From contig JAFQHQ010000199.1 in the NCBI GenBank assembly GCA_017397885.1, positions 8,603-40,602 on the forward strand: a DNA stretch of 32,000 nt, given 5' to 3'. Within the stretch, counting starts at the first letter, position 1, and every line of letters begins with the position of its first letter. Made by a program: the position numbers and the translations under genes. The notes under the pieces were generated by a model. That model saw nothing but the letters and a program-made list of their open reading frames with translations, was not told the DNA's origin and did no database searches. The DNA comes from Clostridia bacterium (GTDB lineage Bacteria > Bacillota > Clostridia > UMGS1810). This document shows, piece after piece, positions 538-18,837 of the stretch.

Positions 538-2289
538 ATGCTTCTTCCACGTGCAAAAAAAGAAAACTATTTTGATGAAAAATATATTTTAAAAGCCTAT
601 GACAAATCCGTCGATCTGATGTATTTATACAAAAAATACAAACACGGCAATGAAGATGTGACAATTATCACAGATTCCGCATTGGGAAAAGAAGAATACA
701 AACTAACAATAAATTCCGCCGGAATAACAATAACCGCATCCTGCGACAACGGAATTTTCAGAGCAGTTTCATCACTGAGACAGCTCTTGTTTGATTACAA
801 AGATGCCTTGCCCTACTGCGAAATTGAAGACAGCCCGGTTTTTGAAAAGAGAAGCTACATGCTCGACATCAGCCGATGCAGAATGCCGAAGGTGTCCACC
901 ATTACAAGACTTATCGACCTTTTGGCGGATCTCAAATATAACGAGTTTCAGCTTTATATGGAAAGTTTCGTATACAAGTGCAAGGCATACCCAAAATATA
1001 CCGAAGATTTTGACTGCCTTACCCCTGAAGACATTGAATATCTTGTGGATTACTGCGAAGAACGCTTTATTGACCTTGTACCAAACCAGAACAGTCTCGG
1101 TCACATGAGAACCTGGCTTGACGAAGAAGAGTTCAAGCCCCTTGCTCTCACAGACGGCAACCATCGTTCAACAACAATTAATCCCCTTCTTCCCGAAACC
1201 TTTGAGTTTATGGATAATCTCTACGATTCCCTTCTTCCACACTTTAAGTCGGAATATGTAAACATCGGTCTTGACGAAGCCTATGAACTTGACAAATTCC
1301 AGCTTGAAGAAGTGTGCAAGGAAAAAGGCGTTGAAAATGTGTTTATGGACTGGCTCGGAAAACTTTCGGACCACATTGGAAAAAAGTATGGCAAAAAGGT
1401 GCAATTCTGGGCAGATATGGTCTACAAATATCCCGAAAGCTACAGCCGTGTTCCCAAAGATGCCGTTGCTCTCAACTGGGGCTATGACAGAGACATCACC
1501 GCCCAAATGGAAAAACGATGCATTGACCTTGCCTCAATGGGAACAAACTTCTACATTTGCCCCGGAAATCAGACATGGATAACCTTTACGGGAAAGCACG
1601 ACCTTTGTGCATTTAATCTCTACACCTGCGGAAAGCTTGGTGAAAAATACGGTGCCAAGGGTTATATGCTCACCGACTGGGGATGCGGCGAAGGTCACAC
1701 TCATTTCCCCGTGTGGAGCCTTATCCCTGCGGTTATGTCAGGTCAGATTTCGTGGAACGGTGCAAACGAAGACCCCCGTCACTACACACGCTATGCGGAA
1801 AAATATCTTGACGATTATGTATTCAATGCAAAAATTTCAAGCAGAATAAGAATGCTTCAGCAATATTATCTTCTTGAGCCCGAGCGAGTTCCCTCAACCA
1901 CAATGTGCGGCTACACAATTCGCTGTCCGCTAACCGAAACCAAAGCCTTTTGCTTTGACCTTAAGGTGAGCGGTGAACCAATCTTTTTTGAAAATGTAAT
2001 ATGGTATGTGAACAGATGTCTTGAAGATGTAGTTAAAACTGATTTTGACGAAAACTGGAAGAGACAAATTATCATAAACAGCAAAATGGTAATCTTAAGC
2101 GCAGAGCTTTGTCTAATCAGAATGTCACAAACCTGTGAAAGTGAAAAAATTGACGAGCTTGTAGAACTTATAGATTTTATTGCCGAAGAATATGCAATTC
2201 TTTGGGACAGAGAAAACTATTCCAAAGGCAAAGAGCATTTCCTTGAGCAGCTTGAAGGAAGAAGAAAAGAGCTTCTGGAAATGAAATGA
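538..2289 (+). CDS. GH20-like glycoside hydrolase (beta-N-acetylhexosaminidase family), cytoplasmic
   Basis: 583 aa ORF. 'EDSPVFEKRSYMLDISRCRMP...IDLLADLKYNEFQLY' matches the start of the GH20 TIM barrel (DxPRFxxRGxMLDxxR...K.N). 'VNIGLDEAYEL' carries the adjacent Asp-Glu pair expected for the GH20 catalytic dyad. No signal peptide. Confidence 0.55.
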   Translation: MLLPRAKKENYFDEKYILKAYDKSVDLMYLYKKYKHGNEDVTIITDSALGKEEYKLTINSAGITITASCDNGIFRAVSSLRQLLFDYKDALPYCEIEDSPVFEKRSYMLDISRCRMPKVSTITRLIDLLADLKYNEFQLYMESFVYKCKAYPKYTEDFDCLTPEDIEYLVDYCEERFIDLVPNQNSLGHMRTWLDEEEFKPLALTDGNHRSTTINPLLPETFEFMDNLYDSLLPHFKSEYVNIGLDEAYELDKFQLEEVCKEKGVENVFMDWLGKLSDHIGKKYGKKVQFWADMVYKYPESYSRVPKDAVALNWGYDRDITAQMEKRCIDLASMGTNFYICPGNQTWITFTGKHDLCAFNLYTCGKLGEKYGAKGYMLTDWGCGEGHTHFPVWSLIPAVMSGQISWNGANEDPRHYTRYAEKYLDDYVFNAKISSRIRMLQQYYLLEPERVPSTTMCGYTIRCPLTETKAFCFDLKVSGEPIFFENVIWYVNRCLEDVVKTDFDENWKRQIIINSKMVILSAELCLIRMSQTCESEKIDELVELIDFIAEEYAILWDRENYSKGKEHFLEQLEGRRKELLEMK

Positions 2290-3143: not shown

Positions 3144-4511
3144 TCATTGCGACTGAAGCATTTTTGAATATGCTTTTTTGTGAACTATGAGATATGTTGT
3201 AACATGCATCAATATAACCACACACCATGAAATCGGCCAACAAAGGAAAAGGGTTTCGGGGGTGTGGTTCATCGGAAGAACAAAACTAACCCAAAGTATA
3301 CGAAAACCGCAAGCGCCAATCAATGAGTTTATGGCAGATATTGACGAATAGCCCATACCTCTCAGCGTTCCTGCCATAACTTCCATAATTCCGCATATAA
3401 AATACGGAAGGCCGGTGTAGGTTATTCTTATAATGCCATGCTCAATGGCTTCGGCAGAGTCTGTTATGTATATGCCCAAAAGCTGTTTTGCAAAAATGAC
3501 TGTAAGCATGCCCAAGACAAACCCGATAACGCTTACGCAGCCAATGGAAACAAATATTGTTTTTTTGATTCGTTTTTCATTTTTGGCACCGTAGTTTTGA
3601 CTGACAGATGTAAGCGTTGCCTGATAAACAGCATTCATTGCAGTGTAGACAAAGCCCTCAATGTTTGCCCCTGCAGCATTTCCTGCAATGGCTTCCTTGC
3701 CGAATGAATTTACCGAAGATTGAATAACAGTGTTTGCCAAGGCAAACATCATGCTCTGCAAAGCCGCAGGAATACCGATTTTAAAAATATTTGCAACTTC
3801 TTTCCTGTAGAGAGTGAGTTTAGCTAAAACCAGCTTGTATGACCCTTCCGCTCTCATGAGAGTGACAACAATCGCCGCCGCAGAAAGACAGTTCGAAACC
3901 GTTGTGGCAATTGCAACACCTGCAACACCCATGTGAAAAACAATAACAAGTATCAGGTTAAGCACAACATTGACTACACCCGATGCCGCAAGAATGTAAA
4001 GAGGTCGCTTTGTGTCGCCCACAGCCCTCAAAACAGCCGCACCGAAGTTATATATCATGCTTGCGGGAACACCTGCAAAAATAATTCGCATGTAAAGAAC
4101 CGCGCCCTCCAAAACCTCACCTTCGGGAGTAGACATCAACATGAGAAGTTTGCGTGCAAAAACAAGGCCTATCAAAGACGCAACAAAGCCCACAATAACA
4201 CTAAGCGCCATGGACGAATGAACGGCTCTGTGAACACCGCCCACATCTCTCGCACCATAGTTTCGGGACACCAGAACCGAAGCTCCGATGGAAATGCCTA
4301 TGCAACCGTTTGTAATGAGTGTGCTCAAAGAGCCCGTTGCACCAACCGATGCCATGGCAGTGCTTCCTGCAAAACGGCTGACAACAATGACATCTGCCGC
4401 ATTGTAAAAAAGCTGCAAAAGATTACCGAGAATAAGAGGAACTGCAAACAGTATGATATTTTTAAATATCGGACCGTTAACCATGTCAATTTCATAAGAT
4501 TGTCTGCTCAT
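3144..4511 (-). CDS. MATE-family (MOP superfamily) efflux transporter / possible flippase
   Basis: 12-TM-like hydrophobic profile. The N-terminus 'GPIFKNIILFAVPLILGNLLQLFYNAADVIVVSRFAG' is typical of MATE. Start moved to Met11 (ATG 4511-4509) because GGAGG (4524-4520) lies 8 nt upstream. The ORF-track start at 4541 would overlap the LRAT-like gene by 4 nt. Confidence 0.85.
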   Translation of the reverse strand: MSRQSYEIDMVNGPIFKNIILFAVPLILGNLLQLFYNAADVIVVSRFAGSTAMASVGATGSLSTLITNGCIGISIGASVLVSRNYGARDVGGVHRAVHSSMALSVIVGFVASLIGLVFARKLLMLMSTPEGEVLEGAVLYMRIIFAGVPASMIYNFGAAVLRAVGDTKRPLYILAASGVVNVVLNLILVIVFHMGVAGVAIATTVSNCLSAAAIVVTLMRAEGSYKLVLAKLTLYRKEVANIFKIGIPAALQSMMFALANTVIQSSVNSFGKEAIAGNAAGANIEGFVYTAMNAVYQATLTSVSQNYGAKNEKRIKKTIFVSIGCVSVIGFVLGMLTVIFAKQLLGIYITDSAEAIEHGIIRITYTGLPYFICGIMEVMAGTLRGMGYSSISAINSLIGACGFRILWVSFVLPMNHTPETLFLCWPISWCVVILMHVTTYLIVHKKAYSKMLQSQ

Positions 4512-4537
4512 TTTATATGCCTCCAAAAACGTATTTG

Positions 4538-4942
4538 TCAAATCTTTATGATTTTGCTTCTTATTTTCGCACGTACATCATCCAAAAAAGAACGCTTTTC
4601 GCCAAAATAGCACTGATTTGCAAAATGTTCACAGTTGTTGTTTAAAATGTTGTATCCTTTTTCACCGACATGGGAAAGAGCCGTTTCAACAATATCACGT
4701 GGACGGCGCCGCCTTTTCTTTTCGTCGCCCTCGCATTCAAGGGTTTCAACAAACTCACCGTTCGAAAAACTTTGAACATCTGCAATCATTACTGCAATAT
4801 CATCGGGCGGAGTGTCACCGTTATCGGGCATACCAAACTCTACGACGGTATTTTCATCAACATAAATTCCATAATGATAATAAAACCTTACCTTAACACG
4901 AATCATATCACCGTATTCGGGGGTTTTTTGAGTCCATTTCAT
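4538..4942 (-). CDS. LRAT/PLAAT (H-RAS-like suppressor, NlpC/P60-related) family Cys-His acyltransferase/phospholipase homologue
   Basis: 134 aa. The His box 'YYHYGIYVD' and the signature 'NCEHFANQC' (catalytic Cys of the NCEHF motif) are both present. No TM segment. The start ATG overlaps the ACP stop as ATGA (4942-4939). Confidence 0.7.
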   Translation of the reverse strand: MKWTQKTPEYGDMIRVKVRFYYHYGIYVDENTVVEFGMPDNGDTPPDDIAVMIADVQSFSNGEFVETLECEGDEKKRRRRPRDIVETALSHVGEKGYNILNNNCEHFANQCYFGEKRSFLDDVRAKIRSKIIKI

Positions 4943-5184
4943 TTTTCCCGCACCTTGCTCTCCACAACATCAATTGCATCCTGAACGGTTTTAATTTTTT
5001 CAAAATCAGAATTGTCGAACCTAATGGAATATTTTTCCTCAAGTGTCATTGCCATATACAAAAATGAGATAGAATTCATTCCTATATCTTTGCGTAAATC
5101 CGATTTTTCACTGAAAGTTGAAACATCAATATCATCACCGAGTACTGCAACAAACATTTCTTTGAGTTCTTCTACCGTTGCCAT
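4939..5184 (-). CDS. Stand-alone acyl carrier protein
   Basis: 81 aa four-helix-type sequence with a phosphopantetheine-site-like 'DIGMNSISFLY' (Ser codon at 5073-5071). Start trimmed to ATG 5184-5182 because GGGGAGGA lies 7 nt upstream. It begins 1 nt after the stop of the upstream gene. Confidence 0.8.
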   Translation of the reverse strand: MATVEELKEMFVAVLGDDIDVSTFSEKSDLRKDIGMNSISFLYMAMTLEEKYSIRFDNSDFEKIKTVQDAIDVVESKVREK

Positions 5185-5185
5185 G

Positions 5186-5851
5186 TTAATTCCTCCCCAT
5201 ATCTTCATATATTTTTCTGCATTCTGTCATTTTTTCAAACACCAAATCGGCATATTCATTTATATTTTTAATGCCTTTTATCTCCCCTGTCCCAAAAGCG
5301 TCAATGGGTTCTCCTATTACCATGCAGTTGCGTTTGTGTGTTTTTGTTTTGCGTGAAACATACACGGGAATGATGGGAACTTTCGCCTGCATTGCCATAA
5401 GAACAATACCCGACTTTATGGATTTCATTTCGTCGTCACGGTTTATGCCCCCCTGCGGAAACAAAGCAAGAACATGCCCTTCTTTAAGAATTGAAACCGT
5501 TTTTCTCATTGACTCTATGTCACAGATATTACGGTCGATTTTTATGCAACCCACACCCTTTAACAAACTGCCCACAATCTTGTTTTCCATAACAACTTCC
5601 GCCGCCAAAAAAAACATTCGTCTGTACCAGAAAAGGCTTCCAAGCAGAAGCGGGTCTTTGAAGCATGTGTGATTTGCCGCAATGATTGCCCCACCTTTGA
5701 TTTTTTGTTTGGCTTTTTCAGAAACAAAAATCTTTTTGATTCTGAAAGCAAGAGGTAACCACATGCACAGCATTCTTGCAAAATCCATCGGAAAATGCCT
5801 TATATCAAAAAGTCTCGGTTTTTTTATCTTTTTGTTGTTATTGCTTTTCAT
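5186..5851 (-). CDS. PlsC/LPLAT-family acyltransferase (copy 2)
   Basis: HX4D motif 'NHTCFKD', 'FPQGG' and 'VPIIPVYV' (LPLAT motifs I, III and IV). The start is uncertain: Met31 at 5851 gives a 14 nt overlap with the upstream LPLAT, and alternatives exist at 5881 and 5941. Confidence 0.75.
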   Translation of the reverse strand: MKSNNNKKIKKPRLFDIRHFPMDFARMLCMWLPLAFRIKKIFVSEKAKQKIKGGAIIAANHTCFKDPLLLGSLFWYRRMFFLAAEVVMENKIVGSLLKGVGCIKIDRNICDIESMRKTVSILKEGHVLALFPQGGINRDDEMKSIKSGIVLMAMQAKVPIIPVYVSRKTKTHKRNCMVIGEPIDAFGTGEIKGIKNINEYADLVFEKMTECRKIYEDMGRN

Positions 5852-6500
5852 TTTTCTTTTCCAATCTTTTTTCGAGTTCATCTTTAAGAGCATAGCTCTT
5901 ATCTTCAAGCATTTTTGTGAGGTTTTTGAGCTCATCATCACTCACATTCTCGCTCTTTACATAATCCCTTAGATAAATCGCTTCGCCAATAATAACATGC
6001 GCTCTCTTAAACAATCCGTAATTACCGTCGGTATAGACAGGAATTATGGGGGCATCGGTACGAAGAGCAATAAGGACTATACCCGGCTTGTAGGGAAAAG
6101 GTTTTCCGCCGACGGGTAGCCTGCCCTGAGGAAATACACCCACACTGCCGCCGCTGTCGAGCACATTGAGACTTTCTTCAACAAAGGAAAAATTGCAGGC
6201 ATCCCTGTCCACAAAAATTCCCCCGATTTTATATAAAAACCATGAGAAAAACTTTCCTTTTTTAAAAAGCACCTCTGCCATAAGAAAGTGGATATTTCTG
6301 AAAAAGAAAACAATCAAATATAACACAAAATCCATAAGTGAAGTGTGATTTGACATAAGAATTGCGTTCCCGGGCAAATTACGCTTTACTTTTTTGTTTT
6401 GTTTATATACCTTGGGCTTAAAAAACAGCAATCCGGGTAATACACCGGTAAGCTTTACAAAGCCCAAAACAAACGAACTCATTTTACTGGTTTTTTTCAT
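5838..6500 (-). CDS. PlsC/LPLAT-family acyltransferase (copy 1)
   Basis: HX4D motif 'NHTSLMD', 'FPQGR' and 'APIIPVY', with a hydrophobic N-terminal segment. The start is 2 nt after the stop of the AMP-ligase gene. Confidence 0.8.
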   Translation of the reverse strand: MKKTSKMSSFVLGFVKLTGVLPGLLFFKPKVYKQNKKVKRNLPGNAILMSNHTSLMDFVLYLIVFFFRNIHFLMAEVLFKKGKFFSWFLYKIGGIFVDRDACNFSFVEESLNVLDSGGSVGVFPQGRLPVGGKPFPYKPGIVLIALRTDAPIIPVYTDGNYGLFKRAHVIIGEAIYLRDYVKSENVSDDELKNLTKMLEDKSYALKDELEKRLEKKNEKQ

Positions 6501-6502: not shown

Positions 6503-8413
6503 CTATATATGCCTTTCAATGTATTGACAAATTTCATGAACGGTGTAACACAAAACATCTTTTTCGGATGCCGAAACAGAAAACTCCTCGGCAAGATCCG
6601 TCAAAATCGAAAAATATTGCATGCTGTCGGCTCCCATATCAAGCATAATGTGAGCATGAATATCAATTGATTCAGCATCCGTATTCAGTCTCTTTGCCAC
6701 AATGGACTTAACCTTTGCAAGAATTTCACTGTTGTAGACAGCCTCACTGCAATCCGACAAAACCGCTTTTGTAAAATCATAAATATTAACAGTTTTATCT
6801 GCCAACGCCTTGAGAACATAGGTTCTGCTGATTTTTGCCGCTCCCGGAGATGTGATATTATCTGTTGTATAATAGATTTTTGCCACCCTCGATGTCAAAG
6901 GAAGACTCTCGTTTATGGCAATGATTGTGTCAAGCAATTCATTTCTTTTTGAAACAGACATATATTTTCCGATTTGAACAATCATGGAAACGGTTTTCTT
7001 TCCTTCGTTTTCAATTCCGAGGACACAAAAGTTTTCTGCCTGAGGAAGTGCAAAACACTGTTCAACAACATCGGGGTTGATGTTCTCGCCGTTGTCTCCG
7101 ATAATCGTATCACCATTTCGGCCTTTTACATAATAGTATCCGTCATTTTGAGTTAAGATGTCACCGCTGTCAAAATAGCCATCCATTGACTGCTCCCGGC
7201 CATTTATGAGCATTTTGTCACAAAGCGAATCACCCTTAATCAAAAGAGTGCCTTTGTCACCGATTTCATAGTCAACCGACGCAAAGGGTTTTCCTATGGA
7301 ATTGAGATTTTTGTGTTTGGGACGGGTTCTCAGTTCAACCGACGTTATACCGATTTCGGTCATGCCGTAGCCGTTGTGCAAATTGTACCCTATTGCATTT
7401 ATAAGCTCCAGTGCCGAGCTTCGCACATAGCTTCCGCCGCTTATGCAAAACTTTATGCTTTTGCCAAACAGTTCATCGGTAACTTCGCTCATTATTTTTT
7501 GGGAAAGCTTCATCCCGAGATGCGGAAAAATATTTTGCAAGCCTGTGCAAAGTCTTATACCCCGTTTCAGCTTGGCAAGCTTTTTGTCGCCTGCCTCTTT
7601 TGCCTTTTTCATGACAGAATTTTCAATGGTATGCCACAAAAGCGGAACAGCAAACACATGGGTAACCTCATGTTTTTTGCAGGTTTTCAAAATGGTGTCC
7701 GATGAATAATCTTTCAAAAACACAATTGTAACTCCAAAAAACGAAAACCAAAAATACACAGCAATCAAACCAAAAATGTGATAAAAAGGCAAAAACGCAA
7801 GATTTTTAATTCTGCCATTGTGGTCTGCTGCGATTTCGGGATATTTTTTCATGAATGATTTAACATTTAATATCTGAGACGAAAACCTTTGACCGCTGTA
7901 GAAACAAATTGTCTCTTTCAAAGATGTTCCCGATGTGGAAAGAGCAATTTCGTTTTCAAACTCACCTTCAAAACCTGTCTTCCCCTCAAGTGAATCAATG
8001 TCAATAAACTCTGTATCAAGTTTTGTGTCACCTTTACCCACGGTATATTTTATGCCGAGGGTTTTGAGCGCAGAATTTGCCATTCCGGGAAGCTGCCTGC
8101 AGTTTACAAGATAGGGTTTGTTTCCGCTTCGGAGAATTGCCCAGAAAGCCACAATCCAATCAATGCAATTTTCCATTTCAAGAGCTACAAAGCCATGGGT
8201 TGCACCAATTTTTGCATACAGAGCTTCGGAAGCTGATTCTATTCGTTCTTTAATTTGTTCATATGAGTATGAGCGAATTCTGAAACCGTCCGTATCTTCC
8301 GCCAGCACGCCCGAATTCGCAAACATAACATTAAAAATTGCCTCAAAATCCATTTTGGAATTTTCAAGGACACCTATATTATTGCGAATAATACTTTTAA
8401 TTTTTTTGTTCAT
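6503..8413 (-). CDS. ANL-superfamily AMP-forming acyl ligase fused to a C-terminal carrier (ACP/PCP-like) domain
   Basis: 636 aa. Motifs are 'NGYGMTE' (A5), 'YFDSGDIL' (A7), 'GRNGDTIIGDNGENINPDVVE' (A8) and 'SPGAAKISR' (A10 Lys). Residues about 558-636 form a carrier domain with 'LDMGADSMQYF' (Ser codon at 6625-6623). Confidence 0.85.
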   Translation of the reverse strand: MNKKIKSIIRNNIGVLENSKMDFEAIFNVMFANSGVLAEDTDGFRIRSYSYEQIKERIESASEALYAKIGATHGFVALEMENCIDWIVAFWAILRSGNKPYLVNCRQLPGMANSALKTLGIKYTVGKGDTKLDTEFIDIDSLEGKTGFEGEFENEIALSTSGTSLKETICFYSGQRFSSQILNVKSFMKKYPEIAADHNGRIKNLAFLPFYHIFGLIAVYFWFSFFGVTIVFLKDYSSDTILKTCKKHEVTHVFAVPLLWHTIENSVMKKAKEAGDKKLAKLKRGIRLCTGLQNIFPHLGMKLSQKIMSEVTDELFGKSIKFCISGGSYVRSSALELINAIGYNLHNGYGMTEIGITSVELRTRPKHKNLNSIGKPFASVDYEIGDKGTLLIKGDSLCDKMLINGREQSMDGYFDSGDILTQNDGYYYVKGRNGDTIIGDNGENINPDVVEQCFALPQAENFCVLGIENEGKKTVSMIVQIGKYMSVSKRNELLDTIIAINESLPLTSRVAKIYYTTDNITSPGAAKISRTYVLKALADKTVNIYDFTKAVLSDCSEAVYNSEILAKVKSIVAKRLNTDAESIDIHAHIMLDMGADSMQYFSILTDLAEEFSVSASEKDVLCYTVHEICQYIERHI

Positions 8414-8458
8414 AATTATATCCTCTGGTGTCTGCCGTTAATCGACATATTCTATATA

Positions 8459-8487: not shown

Positions 8488-8520
8488 TACGACAGACAGA
8501 TATTTTGAACTTGTTTGAAT

Positions 8521-8541
8521 AAAAAAGCAGGCTGAGCCTGC
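8521..8541 (-). terminator. Rho-independent terminator (second of a tandem pair)
   Basis: GCAGGC/GCCTGC stem (8527-8532 and 8536-8541) followed on the minus strand by T6 (8526-8521). Confidence 0.55.
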
Positions 8542-8611
8542 ACCCTCGTCGCGAGCATAGTTTCACATTCATCTCATCTCGCGAGCGAAATTCGACATAA
8601 ATTCCTATAAA

Positions 8612-10516: not shown

Positions 10517-11212
10517 TCAAAGGCTAACCACATGCATTATGAATTCTTCAGTTTCGCACTTAATCTTTTCAAACTCTTCCGAAAAAGCATCCACAGCAAA
10601 AAAATCGGTTATTCCTGTGCCTATACACTTAAAATATGCCTCTTTCACCGTCCATATTTCAACAAATCTGCGTGCCTCATCACAGCTTAAATCAAGAGAA
10701 AAATCTTTTTCGAAAGGTTTTTTGCCAAAAACATATTCCATTTCTTTGGGCAAGCAAACCCGCTTTGCAAGATTTGAAGGAAAGCTGCGGATTTTTTCGA
10801 TGTCTATTCCGACTCTTTTGTCCGAAACAGCAACAGCAACCGTGTCTGCACTGTGACTGATATTAAAAAACCAATGTAGATTTTGCGAAAGATGAAGCTT
10901 TCCCTTTTCGTCCGCAACAATTGTAAACTTTTCGGGATCGGACGAGGTTAATTTGCCGAGAAGCTCCCGAACCATCCATTCACCGGCAAGAGTACATTTT
11001 TTTTGAACTTCGCCTCTGAACCGTTTTACCCGTGCTTTGCGCTCATCACACATGGCAAAAAAACTTTTTTTGTATGTTTCATCGGAAAAATCCGAAATAT
11101 TCTTCACTGCATAATATATGTTGCAATCAATCTTTTCAAGATACATATGCACGGCATCACCTTTTGAGAAAACGCCTGCAACGCACTTTTTTTCATCTGC
11201 ATAATCCGACAT
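10517..11212 (-). CDS. Sfp-type 4'-phosphopantetheinyl transferase
   Basis: 'FNISHSADTVAVAV', 'VGIDIEKI' and 'WTVKEAYFKCIG' are the three PPTase signature motifs. Start trimmed to ATG 11212-11210, with AAGGAGGG 5 nt upstream. Confidence 0.85.
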   Translation of the reverse strand: MSDYADEKKCVAGVFSKGDAVHMYLEKIDCNIYYAVKNISDFSDETYKKSFFAMCDERKARVKRFRGEVQKKCTLAGEWMVRELLGKLTSSDPEKFTIVADEKGKLHLSQNLHWFFNISHSADTVAVAVSDKRVGIDIEKIRSFPSNLAKRVCLPKEMEYVFGKKPFEKDFSLDLSCDEARRFVEIWTVKEAYFKCIGTGITDFFAVDAFSEEFEKIKCETEEFIMHVVSL

Positions 11213-11272
11213 GTTTTCCCTCCTTTCGCAATATAGTATTGCAATTGACATTTTTATATGGTAAAATATATA

Positions 11273-12271
11273 TTATGTGTTTGGCTCTTTTGTGCAAAAA
11301 AATTCAACAAGAGTGTCAACATATTCTTTAAGCAGTGCATCGTTTACCGTGTACAGGCAATGCTTTGCACCACGAAATACTTTGTATTCGCACTTTAAAA
11401 GCTTTGCAAGCTTTTTTTGCGGTTTAACTTTTACGGAATTATCTTTTTCGGCACTGATTATAAGAACCTTTGCACCGATGTTTTTCATCCTGTTTTTACA
11501 TAGCAGTTTTTCAATCACGGTTATTGCTTCGTAATTCCAACGGTTTGTGCCGTATGAGTTTTGATAATTCGCATTTTTAATTCGCAAATCAAGATTATAT
11601 TTAAATCGGTTCTCACTGATGTCATTGCTTTGTTCAAGCTTTGCATTGGGGTTAAAATCCGACGTGAACTTAAATCTTGCATTCCAGCCGTTTTTCCGTG
11701 CTTCACCCTTCATAAGTTTTTTCAAAACAAATCTGGGAAATGGCGGAGTTTTCGGATAAACCATCGGCGAAGAAAGAACGGCTTTCTTAATCTTATTTTT
11801 GAAATTTGAAAGATAAAGCCCGGCAATTGCACCGCCCATGGAATGAGAATAAATATACACGGGAGCATTTTCGCAGTTTGGCTCAACAACCTGATTTATA
11901 AAACAATCCAGATCACGGGCATAATCTTCAAAGCTGTCCGCATGAGTTATTTGCGTGTTTTTGCTGTAGCGATGTGAGTTTCCGTGACAACGCACATCAT
12001 AGAGAAAAACATTGTAGCCCATGAGCATGAAATACCACGAAAGCTCATAATACTTTTTGGTAAACTCGGTGTAGCCGTGAATGACAACAATGTTGGCAAT
12101 GGGGTTTTCCACCTTAAAAAACTCATAGTACATCCGTGTTTTGTCAAAAGAAGTGAAGAAACCGCTTTGAACATAACTCTTGAGAGTTTTATTAAGTTCA
12201 TCCATTTTCTCAAAATATTCGGTTTCGTTGATGATTTCGTATTTGTATTCAGGTTTAAATAACACAGCCAA
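11273..12271 (-). CDS. Alpha/beta hydrolase, lysophospholipase / monoacylglycerol-lipase-like
   Basis: 'VVIHGYTEFTKKYYELSWYFMLMGYNVFLYDVRCHGNS' plus the nucleophile elbow 'YSHSMGG', a pattern typical of PldB/MGL-like (COG2267-type) hydrolases. The start is either TTG at 12271 or GTG at 12265, behind AAAGGAG. Confidence 0.65.
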   Translation of the reverse strand: MAVLFKPEYKYEIINETEYFEKMDELNKTLKSYVQSGFFTSFDKTRMYYEFFKVENPIANIVVIHGYTEFTKKYYELSWYFMLMGYNVFLYDVRCHGNSHRYSKNTQITHADSFEDYARDLDCFINQVVEPNCENAPVYIYSHSMGGAIAGLYLSNFKNKIKKAVLSSPMVYPKTPPFPRFVLKKLMKGEARKNGWNARFKFTSDFNPNAKLEQSNDISENRFKYNLDLRIKNANYQNSYGTNRWNYEAITVIEKLLCKNRMKNIGAKVLIISAEKDNSVKVKPQKKLAKLLKCEYKVFRGAKHCLYTVNDALLKEYVDTLVEFFCTKEPNT

Positions 12272-14362: not shown

Positions 14363-15337
14363 TTAACAAAGTGCATTATGAATACGGTTGGAAAGATCGC
14401 CACTATCAAGAGTGAGTGCCAATTTTACACATTCATAAGCAGTTTTTTCATTGGCACACCCGTGCATTTTTACCACGGGTTTTTTTGCGCCCAAAAAAGT
14501 TGCACCTCCAAGATCGTTAAAGGCAAACATGGAGTGAAGAGCATTTTTCAGCTTGTCGTGAACCTCTGTTCCCGAGGCAAGCTCATCAACAATTTCGATT
14601 GCCGCCATGCCGGCAGCCTCGGTATTTTTAAGAAGCACATTTCCGGTAAATCCGTCGGTAACAACAACATCTGCCGGAGAATTCACAAGATGAGTGCCTT
14701 CGATATTTCCGATAAAATTTATGGGAAGCTTTTCGATGAGAGCATATGCCTCTTTTACAAGTGCGTTTCCCTTGTGAGGGGACTGACCTACCGACATCAA
14801 TGCCACCTTTGGTGACTCAATCCCCGCAAGACTTTGCATATAGGCATTGCCCATCAGCGCAAAATTTTTGAGGTCTTCACTTTTGCAATCGGTGTTTGCA
14901 CCGCAATCCACAAGACACACAAGTCCGTCTTTTTTACACGGAATTGCAGTTGCCAAAACAGGCGACATCAGCCCCTTAACCAATCCAAGTCTGCATATTG
15001 TACCCACAAGGAGTGCCCCTGTGTTGCCTGCGCAAATCATTGCACATGCATCAACATCATCTCTGAGCTTTTCAAGAGACATAACCATTGACGTGTCGTC
15101 TCCGCCTCTGAAAACGCAGGTGGGAAGATCGGAATCCGCAACAAAACTCTTTGTATGAAGAATCTCTATGCGGTCAAAACCAAAGCCCCGACTGCAAACA
15201 ATTTTTTCGATTTCGGATTTATCTCCCGCAAAAACAACCGAAAAATCATCCCTTTCAGCCATAGCATTCAAAACTCCGCAAACTATTGGGAAACAGCCAT
15301 TGTCCGACCCAAGAGTGTCCACAATCAACTTTTTCAT
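14363..15337 (-). CDS. plsX: Phosphate acyltransferase PlsX (acyl-ACP:phosphate transacylase)
   Basis: Collinear with canonical PlsX: 'CAGNTGAL', 'VDCGAN', 'NFIGNIEG', 'DVVVTDGFTGNVLLK' and 'KMHG'. The N-terminal motif is 'DTLGSDNG' instead of the usual 'DAMGGDxAP'. Confidence 0.85.
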   Translation of the reverse strand: MKKLIVDTLGSDNGCFPIVCGVLNAMAERDDFSVVFAGDKSEIEKIVCSRGFGFDRIEILHTKSFVADSDLPTCVFRGGDDTSMVMSLEKLRDDVDACAMICAGNTGALLVGTICRLGLVKGLMSPVLATAIPCKKDGLVCLVDCGANTDCKSEDLKNFALMGNAYMQSLAGIESPKVALMSVGQSPHKGNALVKEAYALIEKLPINFIGNIEGTHLVNSPADVVVTDGFTGNVLLKNTEAAGMAAIEIVDELASGTEVHDKLKNALHSMFAFNDLGGATFLGAKKPVVKMHGCANEKTAYECVKLALTLDSGDLSNRIHNALC

Positions 15338-15352
15338 AAAACCATCTTTCTG

Positions 15353-16990
15353 CTATTCAATAGCCATGTAATAATCATATATTTTTTGCTTTCCGGAAAC
15401 GGCACCGCACTCAAAATGAGAAAACTCATCTTCGATTGCCTCTATCAGACCGTCTGCTTCTTCGTCGCTGACATTTTCACCATAAAAAACTGTGATAACC
15501 GATTTTTCGTCAATGTCTTCAAAACTGCGAAGCAAGCCGACAACAGCACTGTTTTTATCCTCTGACACAAAACGGATTTTCCCGTCCGCAATAGCCATAT
15601 ATTCTCCTTCTTTTACGCATACTCCGTCTATTGTTGCATCACGAACAGCTTTTGTGATGCTCACCGAAACAACAGAAGAAAGAGCCATTTCCATGTCTGA
15701 AACAAAGGAATCTATGTCAGGTGCCCAGGTGTTCATCATGGAAAGTGCCGAATAGCCCTCGGCAACGGATTTTGTTTCCAGAACTCTTATGTCACATTTA
15801 TCATACATGCCGGCAGCCTGTTTTGCAGTTGCATATATGTTTGAGTTGTTTGGCAAAACAACGATATGCTCAGCAAAAAGCGAATCAAAAGCATCAAGAA
15901 AATCATGCGCCGAAGGATTGTTAGTCTGACCGCCGTCTATTATTCGGTCTGCTCCTATTTGAGCAAAATAGTCTTTTATGCCGTCGCCCATTGCAACGGT
16001 AACAATTGCATACTTAACTTTTTCGGTTTCTTTTTCAACGGAAGAAGAAACCTCACTGTGCTGAATGGACATATTTTCTATTTTAACAGATATAAATTCA
16101 CCGTAATTTCTGGCAAAAGCCAAAGCTTTTTCAGGCTTGAATGTGTGAACATGAGCCTTAACTATATCTTCATCCAAAACTGCAACAATTGAATCACCTA
16201 TGGTCTGAAGATATGAAATGAACTCTTTTATGGAAAATGCCGCTATGTTTGTTTTGGCATGCATGAGCTGAAGCACAAACTCCGTGCAATAACCATACTC
16301 CAAAACGCTGTCGGGTCCGAAACTGCTGTTTGTCAAAACATTCACATTGCTTTCACGTTCGCTTCCGACTTCAATGATTTCGCCGTCAAGATATGCACAC
16401 ATGCCCTCAATGATGTACAAAATTCCCATTCCGCCGCTATCTACAACATTTGCCTGTTTTAAAACCGGCAACAGCTCGGGAGTATGCTGAAGACTTTTGT
16501 TCATATTCATAAATATATAAGCAAAAGCATCTTTAAAATCCGAAAAATCGCCTGCGCTCTCAAGAGACTCACAGGGCTCGCGAAGAACAGTGAGCATTGT
16601 ACCCTCAACAGGATTCGGAACGGCACTGTAGGCACAGTCCACCCCTTGTCTCATCATGTCTTTAATGTCGGACACATCAATATCATCTTTTGTGCGCAGT
16701 GCATTTGCCCATCCTCGTATAAACTGTGAAAGAATGACACCCGAGTTCCCTCTGGCTGAGAGCAAAACGTTTCTCGAAAACTCCGACATCATTGAAGAAA
16801 CTGTTTCGAAATCTTCCACGCTCTTTAAAATCCCTCCGCCGAGAGTTTTCACCATATTTGTTCCGGTGTCGCCATCGGGAACGGGAAACACGTTCAAATC
16901 ATTCACCTTTGTTTCCATAAGGCACAAATTTCTGTATCCGTTGACAAGCATACCATACAAAGAATTTGCATCAAGTCTCGCTTTGTTCAT
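15353..16990 (-). CDS. fakA: DAK2-domain fatty acid kinase subunit FakA (YloV-like)
   Basis: 545 aa. The N-terminal Dak2 domain has 'LNVFPVPDGDTGTNM' and 'ARGNSGVILSQF', followed by the YloV-type middle and C-terminal domains. It sits directly downstream of two DegV genes. Confidence 0.85.
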   Translation of the reverse strand: MNKARLDANSLYGMLVNGYRNLCLMETKVNDLNVFPVPDGDTGTNMVKTLGGGILKSVEDFETVSSMMSEFSRNVLLSARGNSGVILSQFIRGWANALRTKDDIDVSDIKDMMRQGVDCAYSAVPNPVEGTMLTVLREPCESLESAGDFSDFKDAFAYIFMNMNKSLQHTPELLPVLKQANVVDSGGMGILYIIEGMCAYLDGEIIEVGSERESNVNVLTNSSFGPDSVLEYGYCTEFVLQLMHAKTNIAAFSIKEFISYLQTIGDSIVAVLDEDIVKAHVHTFKPEKALAFARNYGEFISVKIENMSIQHSEVSSSVEKETEKVKYAIVTVAMGDGIKDYFAQIGADRIIDGGQTNNPSAHDFLDAFDSLFAEHIVVLPNNSNIYATAKQAAGMYDKCDIRVLETKSVAEGYSALSMMNTWAPDIDSFVSDMEMALSSVVSVSITKAVRDATIDGVCVKEGEYMAIADGKIRFVSEDKNSAVVGLLRSFEDIDEKSVITVFYGENVSDEEADGLIEAIEDEFSHFECGAVSGKQKIYDYYMAIE

Positions 16991-16993
16991 TGT

Positions 16994-17884
16994 CTATTCA
17001 TTTCCTCCGATAGTTACCTCTTTGCCGTAGCAAAATGATATAATTGTTCCGGGACCAACACATGACCCCACAATCGGACCTATTGTTCCGATGATAACAT
17101 TTTTAAAGGAAATAAGTTTTAAAATCTCATCGCGGAGTTTATGAGCATCTTCAAGACAGTCGGCATGAGAAATAAGAAGCGTATCTTTATCATTTTCATC
17201 AACAATTTCCGCCATTTTTTCGGCAATGCGCCGTTTGGCATTTGCCGCACCCTTAACCTTTTCAACAGCAAGGTTTTGACCGGTTTTGTCGGAAATAATG
17301 ATTGGTTTTATGCCAAACATATTGCCAAAAAAAGCACTTGACGCCTTGACTCTGCCTGCCCGTTTGAGATATTTAAGGTCGTCGGTTGTACCAAACTGAT
17401 TAAAACAGAGTTTGTTTTTTTCAATGTATGAAGCAACATCATCCAAAGATTTCCCTTCTGCTCTCATCATTGAAGCACGAATAAGCATATATCCCTGCCC
17501 CAGAGAACTGCAAAGCGAATCTATGCAAACAACTTTTCTGCCGGGGAATTCGGCTTCAAGCTCTTTTGCTATGATGACGGCAAGATTTACAGATCCCGAA
17601 AGAGCAGACGAGCATGCAATGTAGAGAACATCTTCTCCTTTTTCGAGATAACTTCTGAATTTGTTTATAAATTCTTCGCGCGGGACCTGAGTTGTAAGAA
17701 TTCTCTTTCCGCCGCGCATCATGTCATAGAACTCATGGGAACCGTGATTTTCCCAGTCGAGAGAAGCGTCATATTCCGCTCCGTCGACAACATAGTTCAT
17801 GCGGACATAGTCAATTTCATATTTTTCTCTTATTTCTTTGTCCAGATCGGAAGTTGAGTCTGCAATAACAGCAAATCGGCTCAT
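16994..17884 (-). CDS. fakB: DegV-family fatty-acid-binding protein (FakB-type)
   Basis: 296 aa. 'FAVIADSTSDL' N-terminus, 'TTQVP...' and 'SSALSGS' are typical of DegV. There is a 3 nt gap to fakA. Confidence 0.8.
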   Translation of the reverse strand: MSRFAVIADSTSDLDKEIREKYEIDYVRMNYVVDGAEYDASLDWENHGSHEFYDMMRGGKRILTTQVPREEFINKFRSYLEKGEDVLYIACSSALSGSVNLAVIIAKELEAEFPGRKVVCIDSLCSSLGQGYMLIRASMMRAEGKSLDDVASYIEKNKLCFNQFGTTDDLKYLKRAGRVKASSAFFGNMFGIKPIIISDKTGQNLAVEKVKGAANAKRRIAEKMAEIVDENDKDTLLISHADCLEDAHKLRDEILKLISFKNVIIGTIGPIVGSCVGPGTIISFCYGKEVTIGGNE

Positions 17885-17886
17885 TA

Positions 17887-18837
17887 TTATCCCCTCTTTT
17901 TATTAGAATTTTTTATAATATCATTTAAAATTTCACGTTCTTTTTCTTCACCGTCGGAAATATGCTCTCCGAAATAATATGCGGCACAAAGTCCCGGACC
18001 GATTGACGCTCCGCAAGCCATTCCGACAGAAGTTATGATTACCTCTTTGGGTTTTATGGTTTCGCGAATCATTTCGGCAAGCATCTCGGCTCTTTCATCG
18101 CGATTTGAATGACCCACAAAAATTATTTGCTCCTGCGGATTTACAATGGTTTTTTCAATGTATTCCACCGTTGTTTCCAAAGCGGCTTTTTGCCCCTTAA
18201 CCTTTCCGAGAACCGAAGAAAGACCTTGATTGCTGAAATCGGCAAGAGTATTAACACCGATAAGTGTTCCGAAAAACGCCTTGAAATTTGATATACGTCC
18301 TGTTTTCACGCAGAAAAACAAATCATCGAGAGAACCCATCTGATGAATATTATTTTTTATGCTTTCAAGATACTGCGCAGTTTCCTCTATGGAAGCGCCT
18401 TCCTTTCTTTTCATATCTGCATGAACAATCAGCGGTAAGATTGCCGCAGAATAACGAAGTGAATCTATGCAGATGATTTTTCTTTCGGGATATTTTTTCA
18501 AAAGGTCATCGGCAACACCTTTAACAATTTTGTATGTTCCCGAAATACCCGACGAAAGCGATATACTGAGAATGTCTCTGCCCGATTTCAAAACCGGTTC
18601 AAAAACGTCAACAATCTCTCCCACGGAAGGAGTTGCGGTTTTGTACAGTATCTTTCTGCCCTTCATGGATTCATAATACTCTTTCGGAGTCATGGTTTCC
18701 CAGTCCACATCGGCAAAAACCTGTGTGCCGTCGGGCATATAAACAATACCGCGAATATATTCTTCAATCCCGAATCTGTCTCTGAGTGATTTTGTTACAT
18801 CACCGGACGAATCGGGAATAATTGCAAAATTATTCAT
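17887..18837 (-). CDS. fakB: DegV-family fatty-acid-binding protein (FakB-type), second paralogue with a K/E-rich C-terminal tail
   Basis: 316 aa. 'FAIIPDSSGDV', 'KTATPSVGE' and 'SSGISGTY' are DegV patterns. There is a 2 nt gap to the next DegV gene. Confidence 0.8.
   Translation of the reverse strand: MNNFAIIPDSSGDVTKSLRDRFGIEEYIRGIVYMPDGTQVFADVDWETMTPKEYYESMKGRKILYKTATPSVGEIVDVFEPVLKSGRDILSISLSSGISGTYKIVKGVADDLLKKYPERKIICIDSLRYSAAILPLIVHADMKRKEGASIEETAQYLESIKNNIHQMGSLDDLFFCVKTGRISNFKAFFGTLIGVNTLADFSNQGLSSVLGKVKGQKAALETTVEYIEKTIVNPQEQIIFVGHSNRDERAEMLAEMIRETIKPKEVIITSVGMACGASIGPGLCAAYYFGEHISDGEEKEREILNDIIKNSNKKRG

Follow-up and report, generated by a model that had tools for sequence, protein, structure and literature searches.

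The LRAT/PLAAT family is known for acyltransferases and phospholipases that depend on phospholipids and occur in vertebrates and viruses. The present locus raises the question of what a small bacterial protein with the motifs of this family does when its gene is tied, start to stop, to the gene of an acyl carrier protein (ACP). The locus lies in a stretch of 32,000 nucleotides from a Clostridia bacterium, here called the window. The first-pass annotation had read the arrangement as an acyl relay between the ACP and a lipid or amine acceptor, or equally as a phospholipase A-type step supplying lysolipid to two neighbouring acyltransferases.

The annotated reading frame of 134 amino acids with both family motifs, HYGIY and NCEHF, was confirmed by inspection of the sequence and by a match to the Pfam LRAT model PF04970 (E 1.1e-19, 71.3 bits against a cut-off of 24.3), which covers residues 7-116 of the protein and positions 2-119 of the 120 in the model. 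His23 sits in HYGIY and Cys104 in NNCEHF. In phmmer alignments to the PLAAT3 structures 4fa0, 4dot and 7zom (E about 2e-6) these two residues coincide with the catalytic His23 (YRHWAIY) and Cys113 (NCEHF) of PLAAT3, and the catalytic order is permuted as it is there, with the histidine near the N-terminus and the nucleophilic cysteine near the C-terminus. Residues H23, Y97, N102, N103, C104, E105, H106, F107, and C111 are invariant in 22 aligned homologues, which show 34-70% identity (47-70% without the single most distant sequence); H23, Y97, C104, and C111 are invariant in alignment A1 and at least 90% conserved in alignment A3. Tyr97 stands seven residues ahead of Cys104 and Cys111 seven residues behind it, which is the spacing of Tyr154 and Cys168 in LRAT. 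Such a signature tyrosine seven residues ahead of the cysteine is described for LRAT (Tyr154) and for LnsA of Staphylococcus aureus (Tyr129), Cys168 being the second cysteine of LRAT (PMC13559823, PMC3142127). [quoted passage not shown]

The fold agrees with this assignment. An AF2 model of the protein (pLDDT 88.7) was compared with solved structures by Foldseek, and the seven top matches were structures of PLAAT3, HRASLS2 (PLAAT2), and PLAAT4, with E about 1e-6 and TM scores (target) of about 0.75; the best single match gave E 8e-7 and a TM score (target) of 0.77. The nearest solved relatives are thus PLAAT/HRASLS acyltransferase-phospholipases and not NlpC/P60 peptidases, so that, with Cys and His aligned as above, neither refuting condition named by the first-pass annotation applies: structures of the peptidases MepS/Spr matched poorly (E 0.46-0.84), the canonical NlpC/P60 model PF00877 was not matched in the Pfam scan, and identity with a peptidoglycan NlpC/P60 peptidase was rejected on this ranking. 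The model is PLAAT-like and does not have the alpha/beta-hydrolase fold with Ser-His-Asp triad of a type II thioesterase. The NCBIfam search gave no match for the protein. As had been annotated, no membrane anchor or transmembrane segment was found in it, the highest Kyte-Doolittle mean over 19 residues being 0.66, and direct reading of the N-terminus, which begins MKWTQKTPEYGD, revealed no hydrophobic stretch. At its C-terminal end the protein has a short basic helix (residues 119-134). This helix was considered as a membrane anchor and set aside, since in the fused relatives described below it forms a non-conserved linker to the second domain and is not conserved as an amphipathic anchor. 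The reading frame thus encodes a genuine soluble LRAT/PLAAT member, belonging to the permuted NlpC/P60 thiol acyl-enzymes, with its catalytic residues intact.

The annotated overlap between the LRAT start codon and the stop codon of the carrier protein frame was likewise found: the minus strand reads GAA AAA TGA, and the four shared nucleotides are the ATGA at 4942..4939. For the ACP the ATG at 5184, following a GGGGAGGA ribosome-binding site, is the more likely start and gives 81 amino acids, like its homologues; the listed frame of 89 amino acids runs further upstream, to 5208. NCBIfam ACP subfamily models match it below their cut-offs. The residue to which phosphopantetheine is attached, Ser38 in GMNSI, is invariant in 44 paired ACP-LRAT sequences, which were aligned (alignment A2) out of 81 paired ACP-linker-LRAT sequences assembled. 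Among related genome loci, 79 of 80 have an ACP gene immediately upstream of the LRAT gene, and so do 70 of 71 metagenome loci. The distance from ACP stop to LRAT start is between -4 and +10 nucleotides in 81 of 83 loci, with a four-nucleotide overlap of the ATGA/TTGA type in 34 and a one-nucleotide overlap in 18. Taken together, about 150 loci keep the two genes adjacent and coupled stop to start. The junction is kept across taxa, fused variants show the same ACP/LRAT overlap, and the coupling of the two genes is beyond chance. Charge complementarity between the two proteins is not evident from their isoelectric points (5.65 for the LRAT-like protein and 4.47 for the ACP).

The LRAT gene closes a conserved operon that encodes, in this order, an adenylate-forming enzyme with a carrier domain (A-T), two PlsC-type acyltransferases (a and b), the ACP, and the LRAT-like protein. 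The coordinates of these and the surrounding features are collected in the table.

Table. Features of the window around the LRAT-like gene, with the basis of each assignment
Feature	Position	Strand	Basis and remarks
MATE efflux transporter	3144..4541	-	co-directional; MatE E 3e-51; TIGR00797 above cut-off
LRAT/PLAAT-family protein	4538..4942	-	ATG start, 134 aa, soluble; Pfam LRAT, PLAAT3 alignment, AF2/Foldseek
Key residues of the LRAT-like protein	His23 4876..4874; Glu35 4840..4838; Tyr97 4654..4652; Cys104 4633..4631; Cys111 4612..4610	-	
Stand-alone ACP	4939..5184	-	81 aa from ATG 5184; Pfam PP-binding E 7.5e-9; TGA stop overlaps LRAT ATG
PlsC-type acyltransferase b	5186..5851	-	about 221 aa from ATG 5851; PF01553 E 5.5e-23; HX4D motif NHTCFKD
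PlsC-type acyltransferase a	5838..6500	-	220 aa; PF01553 E 3.1e-19; HX4D motif NHTSLMD
A-T: adenylate-forming enzyme with carrier (T) domain	6503..8413	-	636 aa; AMP-binding E 3e-32; PP-binding E 3.5e-8
Terminator-like hairpin with T-run	8527..8541	-	between upstream zinc-ribbon gene and A-T start; consensus scan only
Sfp-type 4'-phosphopantetheinyl transferase, separate gene	10517..11251	-	Pfam ACPS and AASDHPPT_N
Alpha/beta hydrolase, lysophospholipase L2-like	11273..12271	-	Hydrolase_4 E 1e-35; PldB-type NCBIfam E 2.7e-31, under cut-off; conserved neighbour
Second alpha/beta hydrolase	12292-13269	+	Pfam; synteny, conserved neighbour
GT2 glycosyltransferase	13274-14311	+	Pfam; synteny, conserved neighbour
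PlsX	14363-15337	-	Pfam FA_synthesis
FakA	15353-16990	-	Pfam Dak2/FakA-like
DegV/FakB-type proteins, two	16994-17884, 17887-18837	-	Pfam DegV

The A domain of the A-T enzyme is divergent, its best matches being weak ones to MenE and long-chain fatty acid ligases, and the serine of its T domain lies in GADSMQ. Acyltransferase a finds its best PDB sequence match in the PlsC of Thermotoga (5kym, E 7e-13). The gene of acyltransferase b overlaps the end of that of a by 14 nucleotides (its listed frame extends to 5941), and its product gives partial NCBIfam matches to AGP acyltransferase and to Aas-type acyl-ACP--phospholipid O-acyltransferase; the partial matches of the operon acyltransferases to the Aas model reach 57-63 bits against a cut-off of 1221. 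The terminator-like hairpin upstream suggests that the five-gene operon opens a new transcription unit at about 8413-8526, and a promoter scan of the interval between hairpin and A-T start found no promoter-like site. The MATE gene downstream, whose probable real start is the ATG at 4511 after GGAGG, was considered as a member of the system and rejected, as none follows the LRAT gene in loci L001-L083. The sole MATE match among these loci is weak and partial and lies 9 kb upstream in L053.

On its other side the operon is part of a larger cluster for exogenous fatty acid use and lipid acylation in gut Oscillospirales. PlsX, FakA, and the two DegV proteins (14363..18837) form an exogenous fatty acid activation module, which accompanies the operon, with its genes differently arranged, in the majority of related loci of sufficient length to reveal it. 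The separate phosphopantetheinyl transferase (PPTase) gene, which lies near the operon in related loci too, has local similarity to the C-terminal half of a natural LRAT-PPTase fusion (P0221); its product is the unfused counterpart of the PPTase domain joined to LRAT in most relatives. A GT2 glycosyltransferase, a NodB-type deacetylase, an ACP, and an N-acyltransferase co-occur at the operon, GT2 and polysaccharide deacetylase being conserved neighbours, and a Nod-factor-like logic of the cluster is a speculation drawn from this co-occurrence. Both the PPTase fusion and the wider Fak/PlsX setting go beyond what the first-pass annotation had noticed.

Most relatives carry the LRAT domain fused to an Sfp-type PPTase. 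A scan of the 149 closest representatives at 50% identity found the fusion in 70, and all 120 listed relatives of P0075 have it; the catalytic motifs of both domains are retained. The C-terminal domain of the fusion matches Sfp in its carrier-protein-bound form (4mrt, E 9e-12), and PPTases have carrier proteins as their only substrates. A model of P0221 (pLDDT 91.7) shows well folded domains, with a pTM of only 0.68 that allows no confident placement of the LRAT and PPTase domains relative to each other. The clade is large and conserved: a collection limited to a single genome for each species contains 368 matching stretches, and relatives of the fusion match 847 clusters at 90% identity. A FadD-like ligase gene precedes the ACP gene in 41 of 42 loci of the main variant, whereas the window variant has none in this place. 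Many relatives also have an MFS_2 transporter, and some variants start with an MFS gene or contain one. A rare, reduced version is locus L090, where just a FadD-like ligase, an ACP, and an LRAT-PPTase fusion stand amid unrelated housekeeping genes; this trio is a module to load, carry, and transfer, with LRAT as its sole transferase. In a rare variant (L087) PlsC is fused to LRAT, no stand-alone ACP is present, and the T domain of the A-T enzyme is kept, the A-T orthologue showing 35% identity over the full length. Rce1-like genes are located a few kilobases off in loci L086 and L088.

From these data an acyl-Cys104 enzyme that exchanges acyl groups with a carrier protein is tentatively put forward as the best reading, with a probability somewhat short of even. 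A ligase would place a fatty acid on the phosphopantetheine thiol of the carrier, the candidates being the A-T enzyme of the window, the FadD-like ligase of most relatives, or PlsX working from acyl-phosphate. Cys104, activated by His23, would then accept the acyl group from acyl-S-ACP by trans-thioesterification, giving the acyl-cysteine thioester typical of the family, and a lipid or glycolipid would finally receive the acyl group on a hydroxyl or amine, as a third acylation alongside the two carried out by the PlsC enzymes. The direct partnership with acyl-ACP, the direction of transfer, and the acceptor are all inferred. Papain-fold cysteine enzymes that draw acyl groups from carriers reportedly include the transglutaminase homologue AdmF and the NAT homologue RifF, and the ACP:aminoglycoside acyltransferase BtrH is a further papain-fold precedent (PMC10318531). 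The relay proposed by the first-pass annotation is thereby partly supported: the idea of a meaningful tie to the carrier gained weight from the conserved ACP adjacency, the stop/start coupling, the PPTase fusion, and the stand-alone module of ligase, ACP, and LRAT-PPTase, the part concerning donor and acceptor staying at the level of a proposal.

A serious alternative, though considered rather unlikely, is that the protein acts as a phospholipase A1/2 or transacylase within a remodelling pathway of the Lands-cycle or Aas/LplT-like kind. The acyl donor for Cys104 would be a (lyso)phospholipid, either of the membrane or imported, the acyl chain would be hydrolysed or relocated, and the PlsC pair would re-acylate the lysolipid with carrier-loaded fatty acids, the proximity of the ACP reflecting no more than a shared operon. 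Such chemistry is that of the characterised family: LRAT, PLAAT1-5, and S. aureus LnsA use a phospholipid ester and not a thioester carrier, PLAAT3 being a phospholipase A1/2 and LnsA using the sn-1 chain of phosphatidylglycerol, which also speaks against acyl-ACP as donor (PMC13559823). The partial matches of the acyltransferases to Aas-type models point the same way, as does the setting with FakA, DegV, PlsX, and lysophospholipase-like hydrolases, to which the MFS_2 transporter of many relatives adds a feature recalling LplT-Aas of Escherichia coli. Against carrier exchange it can further be held that two PlsC enzymes already consume acyl-carrier, so that the logic of the operon needs no third transferase, that the PlsC-LRAT fusion of L087, which fits remodelling, does without a stand-alone ACP, and that fused neighbour genes can reflect a common pathway rather than a common substrate. 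Remodelling leaves unexplained, however, the near-universal stop/start coupling to the ACP, the widespread PPTase fusion, and the isolated trio of L090 with no PlsC nearby, and the LRAT-like protein has neither a transmembrane or lipid anchor nor an LnsB-like partner.

The carrier-linked observations could also be accounted for by an editing thioesterase of the type II kind, a role judged distinctly unlikely. The Cys-His enzyme would free the ACP or T domain of acyl groups that were wrongly loaded or introduced by mis-priming, for instance acetyl-phosphopantetheine formed from acetyl-CoA by a promiscuous Sfp-type PPTase, and so keep the carriers available. PPTase fusion and ACP coupling would place the enzyme at the carrier as this demands, PLAAT enzymes are known to hydrolyse their own acyl-cysteine intermediate readily, and genes for PPTases and type II thioesterases are often found in the same carrier-dependent clusters. 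Such editing enzymes can usually be dispensed with, though, and are patchy in occurrence, while virtually all versions of the operon contain LRAT; several conserved alpha/beta hydrolases nearby could do the editing, and the LRAT-like residues Tyr97 and Cys111 are strictly retained. A relay running in reverse, from lipid ester to Cys104 to the thiol of newly made holo-ACP, would feed the PlsC enzymes without a ligase. It is improbable, even though the window lacks the FadD-like ligase that most relatives have, the PPTase fusion would couple the making of holo-ACP to its loading, and transfer from acyl-cysteine to a thiol is near isoenergetic because the acyl-cysteine is already a thioester. For LRAT itself the acyl donor is the sn-1 position of phosphatidylcholine, yet no precedent is known to us for ATP-independent loading of a carrier from a lipid ester. 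With a FadD-like ligase directly upstream of the ACP in most relatives a second loader would be redundant, and in the window this task could fall to the A-T enzyme or PlsX. A cell-wall or peptide amidase of the NlpC/P60 kind, acting on peptidoglycan or lipopeptides, or a non-catalytic scaffold is very improbable. A weak Pfam side-match to the PPPDE family Peptidase_C97 (E 0.003, below the cut-off) would suit an amidase, whereas the topology is permuted with MepS/Spr-type structures at E > 0.4, no hydrophobic N-terminus or wall-binding domain is visible, and the genomic setting is wholly lipid- and carrier-related; the invariance of all catalytic residues argues against an inactive scaffold.

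In its most far-reaching form, given about even chances, the reading extends to the whole clade, whose members would be the first LRAT/PLAAT enzymes to work directly on a phosphopantetheinyl carrier, with exchange of acyl groups between Cys104 and the thiol of the ACP. Acyl-ACP would be unloaded in this way to a lipid or glycolipid. The opposite and more radical direction would be an ATP-independent charging of holo-ACP at the expense of a lipid ester. On this view the widespread LRAT-PPTase fusion would unite in one chain the priming of the carrier and the movement of acyl groups to or from it, as part of a lipid-acylation pathway of gut Clostridia that has not been described before. Use of acyl-ACP would mean a new donor class for the LRAT/PLAAT family and a new type of catalyst in carrier-dependent lipid biosynthesis. 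Nothing was found in the literature on an LRAT/ACP operon or an LRAT-PPTase fusion, and the conserved carrier-coupled LRAT system points to an undescribed bacterial lipid acylation step. The operon probably shapes the building or remodelling of membrane or surface lipids from host or dietary fatty acids, and such lipids would be candidate host-interacting molecules. The bacteria concerned are abundant and mostly uncultured gut Oscillospirales. As the proteins are small and soluble, the hypothesis is directly testable.

Among known systems BtrH, AdmF, and RifF offer a functional analogy only: in each an acyl group passes from acyl-S-carrier via acyl-cysteine to an amine or hydroxyl on a Cys-His catalyst of the papain superfamily. 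They belong to antibiotic pathways and to other papain-clan families, which are neither LRAT-like nor of the permuted NlpC/P60 type. LplT-Aas of E. coli combines an MFS flippase with a fusion of a PlsC-type enzyme and an acyl-ACP synthetase that uses ACP. The same activities are supplied by the window operon as separate proteins (HX4D acyltransferases, ligase, and carrier), with the differences that the operon has a dedicated T domain and ACP, its own PPTase, two acyltransferases, and an additional LRAT-family enzyme, and that only some variants have an MFS protein, which is MFS_2/GPH-like and not LplT.

The sole characterised bacterial LRAT-like acyltransferase found is S. aureus LnsA, of the lipoprotein N-acyltransferase LnsAB (PMC13559823, PMC7387801). 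By description it, too, is a permuted LRAT-like NlpC/P60 protein and an acyltransferase, with an essential His/Cys dyad and tyrosine and a non-essential third polar residue. LnsA is secreted with a cleaved signal peptide, needs the CPBP protein LnsB, and draws on the sn-1 chain of phosphatidylglycerol, whereas the window protein has no hydrophobic N-terminus and its gene stands alongside those of an ACP, a PPTase, and a ligase; a Pfam scan found no LnsB-like Rce1/CPBP gene in the window operon. The closest relatives by both sequence and structure among PDB entries are PLAAT2/3/4, which share with LRAT and the window protein the same PF04970 HMM and the permuted papain-like fold. The catalytic histidine in the second beta-strand, the cysteine in NCEHF, and the tyrosine at -7 are common to them, and a second cysteine at +7 is of the LRAT type. 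The window protein differs in being a bacterial, cytoplasmic protein of 134 amino acids with no LRAT-specific insertion, in having glutamate (glutamine in its homologues) in place of the PLAAT histidine at the third triad position, and in lacking a C-terminal transmembrane anchor, a feature typical of vertebrate LRAT/PLAAT that lies outside the definition of the catalytic domain. We know of no PLAAT or LRAT enzyme that works with carrier proteins; the clade of the window protein is set apart from them by its translational coupling to an ACP gene and its usual fusion to an Sfp-type PPTase.

The 134 amino acids protein studied here (N-terminus MKWTQKTPEYGD), called the LRAT protein in the following, is a member of the LRAT/PLAAT family. 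It matches nearly the whole Pfam LRAT model (PF04970; E 1.1e-19, 71.3 bits against a cut-off of 24.3), and its sole sequence matches in the PDB were PLAAT/HRASLS proteins and an HRASLS3/LRAT chimera (E 2e-6 to 2e-5). Both family signatures noticed in the first-pass annotation are present in the permuted catalytic order and align with PLAAT3, 'YYHYGIY' with 'YRHWAIY', which places His23 on the catalytic His23, and 'NNNCEHF' with 'SENCEHF', which places Cys104 on the nucleophile Cys113. In an alignment of 23 sequences G11, H23, Y24, G25, G37, F59, G62, E66, A88, G93, Y97, N102, N103, C104, E105, H106, F107, C111, G114, and S118 were invariant. Tyr97, seven residues ahead of Cys104, corresponds to the signature tyrosine (Tyr154 in LRAT, Tyr129 in LnsA), and Cys111, seven residues past Cys104, to the second cysteine of LRAT, Cys168 (PMC13559823; PMC3142127). 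Two features distinguish the protein from the vertebrate LRAT/PLAAT enzymes. The third residue of the triad is glutamate or glutamine rather than histidine: PLAAT3 His35 ('VVHLAPP') is matched by Glu35 ('VVEFGMP'), and position 35 is glutamine in at least 90% of the 23 sequences. In addition the membrane anchor is missing, as had been noted before, since the highest Kyte-Doolittle mean over 19 residues is only 0.66.

Seventy clusters of homologues were found among 5.8 billion proteins, all with PF04970. Lengths are 133-145 amino acids except for three fragments and one outlier of 165 amino acids, and identities are 47-73% except for this outlier (36%). The few named clusters carry the label 'lecithin retinol acyltransferase family protein [Clostridia bacterium]'. 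The AlphaFold2 model (pLDDT 88.7, pTM 0.80) best matched the structures of PLAAT3, HRASLS2, and PLAAT4 (E 8e-7 to 5e-5, target TM 0.67-0.77), followed by picornavirus 2A H-box/NC proteins, and the peptidoglycan NlpC/P60 peptidases MepS and Spr came up only at E 0.46-0.84. Because the catalytic residues align and PLAAT structures outrank the peptidases, neither of the two objections that the first-pass annotation had raised against itself holds, namely a misaligned Cys-His pair or closer kinship to NlpC/P60 peptidases. An unexpected structural relative was a subunit of the respiratory supercomplex I+III2+IV of Euglena gracilis (PDB 8iuf, chain E7), which matched the LRAT-like fold (E 3e-4, query TM 0.64).

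The surrounding genes are collected in the table. The operon begins with an adenylate-forming enzyme fused to a carrier domain (A-T) and is set apart from the zinc-ribbon genes upstream by a terminator-like hairpin at 8527-8541. As described earlier from the sequence, the ATG of the LRAT gene overlaps the TGA stop of the upstream PP-binding reading frame (minus strand ...GAAAAATGAAATGG). The start of this acyl carrier protein (ACP) is most likely the ATG at 5184, judged from the sequence: it yields 81 amino acids, is preceded by a GGGGAGGA site, and the homologues have 81-83 amino acids. For PlsC b and the MATE pump the most likely starts are 5851 and 4511.

Genes of the operon and its neighbourhood (window positions, except for locus L090)
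Feature	Position	Strand	Remark
A-T	6503-8413	-	first gene of operon
PlsC-type acyltransferase a	5838-6500	-	HX4D motif 'NHTSLMD'
PlsC-type acyltransferase b	5186-5851	-	'NHTCFKD'; 14-nt overlap with PlsC a
ACP	4939-5184	-	between PlsC b and LRAT
LRAT	4538-4942	-	PF04970
MATE pump	3144-4511	-	after LRAT
Three zinc-ribbon membrane proteins	8668-9273, 9303-9938, 9952-10533	-	between PPTase and A-T
Sfp-type PPTase	10517-11251		upstream of operon
Lysophospholipase-L2-like hydrolase	11273-12271		upstream of operon
Second hydrolase and GT2	12292-14311		upstream of operon; GT2 at 13274-14311
PlsX, FakA, two DegV/FakB proteins	14363-18837		upstream of operon
Third (alpha/beta) hydrolase and NodB-type polysaccharide deacetylase	18979-20791	+	deacetylase at 19916-20791
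922-aa protein with deacetylase domain	23403-26171	-	
L090: FadD-like ligase, ACP, LRAT-PPTase	8245-11008		between upp and mutS2

With one GTDB genome per species, 368 stretches encode an LRAT relative. The best 80 of these, all from Clostridia metagenome-assembled genomes of animal and human guts (Oscillospiraceae, Acutalibacteraceae, Faecousia, Congzhengia, Ornithomonoglobus, and a few Lachnospiraceae), were compared with the window proteins by tblastn. The order A-T, PlsC, PlsC, ACP, LRAT is kept wherever the sequence suffices, with ACP immediately upstream of LRAT in 79 of 80 loci, PlsC ahead of ACP in 72/72, two PlsC genes in 66/66, and A-T in 57/57. The phosphopantetheinyl transferase (PPTase), two hydrolases, GT2, PlsX, FakA, and both DegV genes recur close by in several rearranged layouts. 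Between the stop of ACP and the start of LRAT, 81 of 83 loci have -4 to +10 nt, including a four-nucleotide overlap of ATGA/TTGA type in 34 and a one-nucleotide overlap (TAATG or TGATG) in 18; translational coupling is therefore conserved and not an accident of this genome.

The principal new finding is the fusion of LRAT to other enzymes. When 1.84 billion representatives (50% identity) were searched with a profile, 5,990 matched, 127 of them at E <= 1e-30, and most top matches were proteins of about 330 amino acids with an N-terminal LRAT and a C-terminal 4'-phosphopantetheinyl transferase (ACPS) domain. Among the 149 best representatives scanned, 70 contained the ACPS domain (E <= 1e-3) and about 105 had a length of 250-390 amino acids. 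With one such fusion (P0075) as query 847 clusters were matched; all 120 matches listed had both domains and came from metagenome-assembled genomes of Ruminococcaceae, Saccharofermentans, and other Clostridia. The fusions retain H23, Q/E35, Y98, C105, and C112 as well as the PPTase motifs GxDxE and WxxKE. In the model of another fusion, P0221 (pLDDT 91.7, pTM 0.68), the predicted N-terminal domain resembles PLAAT3 (TM 0.81) and the predicted C-terminal domain Sfp complexed with a carrier protein (4mrt, E 9e-12). In a second type of fusion, which is rare, LRAT is attached to PlsC b (P0219, P0336). Tandem LRAT proteins also occur, one of 1125 amino acids with 11 matched stretches (P0071) and one of 489 with four Pfam LRAT stretches (P0092, E 8e-98).

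The main form of the operon is A-T, PlsC, PlsC, FadD-like ligase, ACP, LRAT-PPTase. Of 80 metagenome loci, 68 carry PPTase fusions; in this set ACP adjoins LRAT in 70/71 loci, the ligase precedes ACP in 41/42, two PlsC genes lie upstream in 31/33, and A-T in 22/23. By score the FadD-like enzyme is a long-chain fatty acid ligase, at about 225 bits and below the curated cut-off. The main form is often extended by an alpha/beta hydrolase, DegV, MFS_2, FakA, a second hydrolase, and a zinc-ribbon protein, all co-directional with tiny gaps or overlaps (as in locus L116). Other forms have an MFS_2 transporter in place of or after A-T, lack the ligase and keep the PPTase separate, as in the window, or consist of A-T with its T domain, PlsC, and PlsC-LRAT without a stand-alone ACP (L087). 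In L090 ligase, ACP, and LRAT-PPTase stand alone, with neither PlsC nor A-T gene within 8 kb, which suggests that this trio is the tightest functional unit; tgt and queA lie upstream. In two Saccharofermentans-like loci (L086, L088) the next gene after LRAT-PPTase, no more than 5 nt away, encodes a 590-aa Wzy_C (O-antigen ligase/polymerase-like) membrane protein, and the surrounding few kb contain three Rce1/CPBP-like genes; as CPBP proteins are partners of the LRAT-like LnsA of S. aureus, this may be a coincidence or a lead. Upstream of one further LRAT-PPTase gene (L156, 2539-4606), about 2 kb contain no reading frame of at least 70 amino acids and no detectable ACP, ligase, or PlsC; the operon may be decayed or badly assembled.

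Several neighbours deserve mention. The A domain of A-T is unusually divergent: the Pfam AMP-binding match is confined to residues 201-392, and among named models the best are MenE-like (about 98 bits). Its substrate may be a carboxylic acid other than an ordinary fatty acid. The second, typical FadD-like ligase of most relatives suggests two different acyl substrates. The three tandem membrane proteins, apparently paralogous, each have a zinc ribbon at the N-terminus (MYIC.KC...CP.CG). As the 12-gene operon of L116 also ends in a zinc-ribbon protein (16934-17419), such proteins may belong to the system as a conserved accessory. The MATE gene (full reading frame 3144-4541), about 25 nt past LRAT and probably co-transcribed here, has no counterpart after LRAT in the related loci L001-L083 searched by tblastn; it is a lineage-specific addition, which might be a product exporter or unrelated. 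A deacetylase and alpha/beta hydrolase pair like that of the window lies directly beside LRAT in L001-L003; with the conserved GT2, this pair raises the possibility of a deacetylated amino-sugar as acyl acceptor. Apparently unrelated cargo occupies 26182-31972 (-), 538-2289 (+), 20788-21941 (+), and 22342-23397 (-): a 1062-aa SLH-domain surface protein, an 864-aa protein without Pfam hit, a GH20 hexosaminidase, a GNAT acetyltransferase, an MBL-fold protein, and a GFO/IDH/MocA oxidoreductase.

The theme of the cluster is secure: activation of exogenous fatty acids by Fak, PlsX, and the ligase-carrier pair, and O-acylation of a glycerolipid-like acceptor by two PlsC-type enzymes. A carrier protein as partner of LRAT is indicated by the conserved coupling to the ACP gene, by the missing membrane anchor, and by the dominant fusion to a PPTase, an enzyme whose only substrate is a carrier protein. 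It is also indicated by the trio, where LRAT is the only transferase for a load-carry-transfer sequence. We tentatively prefer a mechanism in which Cys104/His23 would accept the acyl group from acyl-S-phosphopantetheinyl-ACP, an acyl-Cys thioester typical of the family would form, and the final acceptor of the acyl group would be a hydroxyl, an amine, or water.

The first-pass observation is confirmed and its interpretation partly supported. Of the two roles proposed earlier, the acyl relay gains support as far as the link to the carrier is concerned. The other, a phospholipase A-type step that supplies lysolipid, corresponds to the main rival, which is less probable: a phospholipase A or transacylase acting on (lyso)phospholipids, with the lysolipid re-acylated by the PlsC enzymes in a Lands-cycle or LplT/Aas-like repair. 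It is the chemistry of every characterised LRAT relative and fits the PlsC-LRAT fusion and the context of MFS transporter and hydrolases; its agreement with the PPTase fusion and the isolated trio is poorer. A thioesterase that edits mis-primed carriers is improbable, reverse, ATP-independent loading of ACP from lipid esters slightly more so, and a peptidase or scaffold very unlikely. The protein is classed neither as a canonical NlpC/P60 peptidase nor as LnsA-like, the sequence having no N-terminal hydrophobic stretch and, for LnsA, the operon no CPBP partner. The function of LRAT is inferred here and can be tested with small soluble proteins.

The LRAT domain family itself is not new and has a name in existing annotation; the novelty lies in the form that is coupled to a carrier protein and fused to a PPTase, and in the conserved operon in which it is found. 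No paper was found on LRAT together with a phosphopantetheinyl transferase or describing the operon, and the fusion beside an ACP would surprise enzymologists of lipids or carrier proteins. At the operon level the nearest paradigm is LplT-Aas of E. coli, whose functions the window system spreads over individual proteins, with dedicated carriers and a PPTase in addition. The nearest functional analogues of the preferred acyl transfer from ACP would be papain-fold enzymes such as AdmF and RifF, which accept acyl groups from carrier proteins. The papain-fold enzyme BtrH does so as well (PMC10318531).
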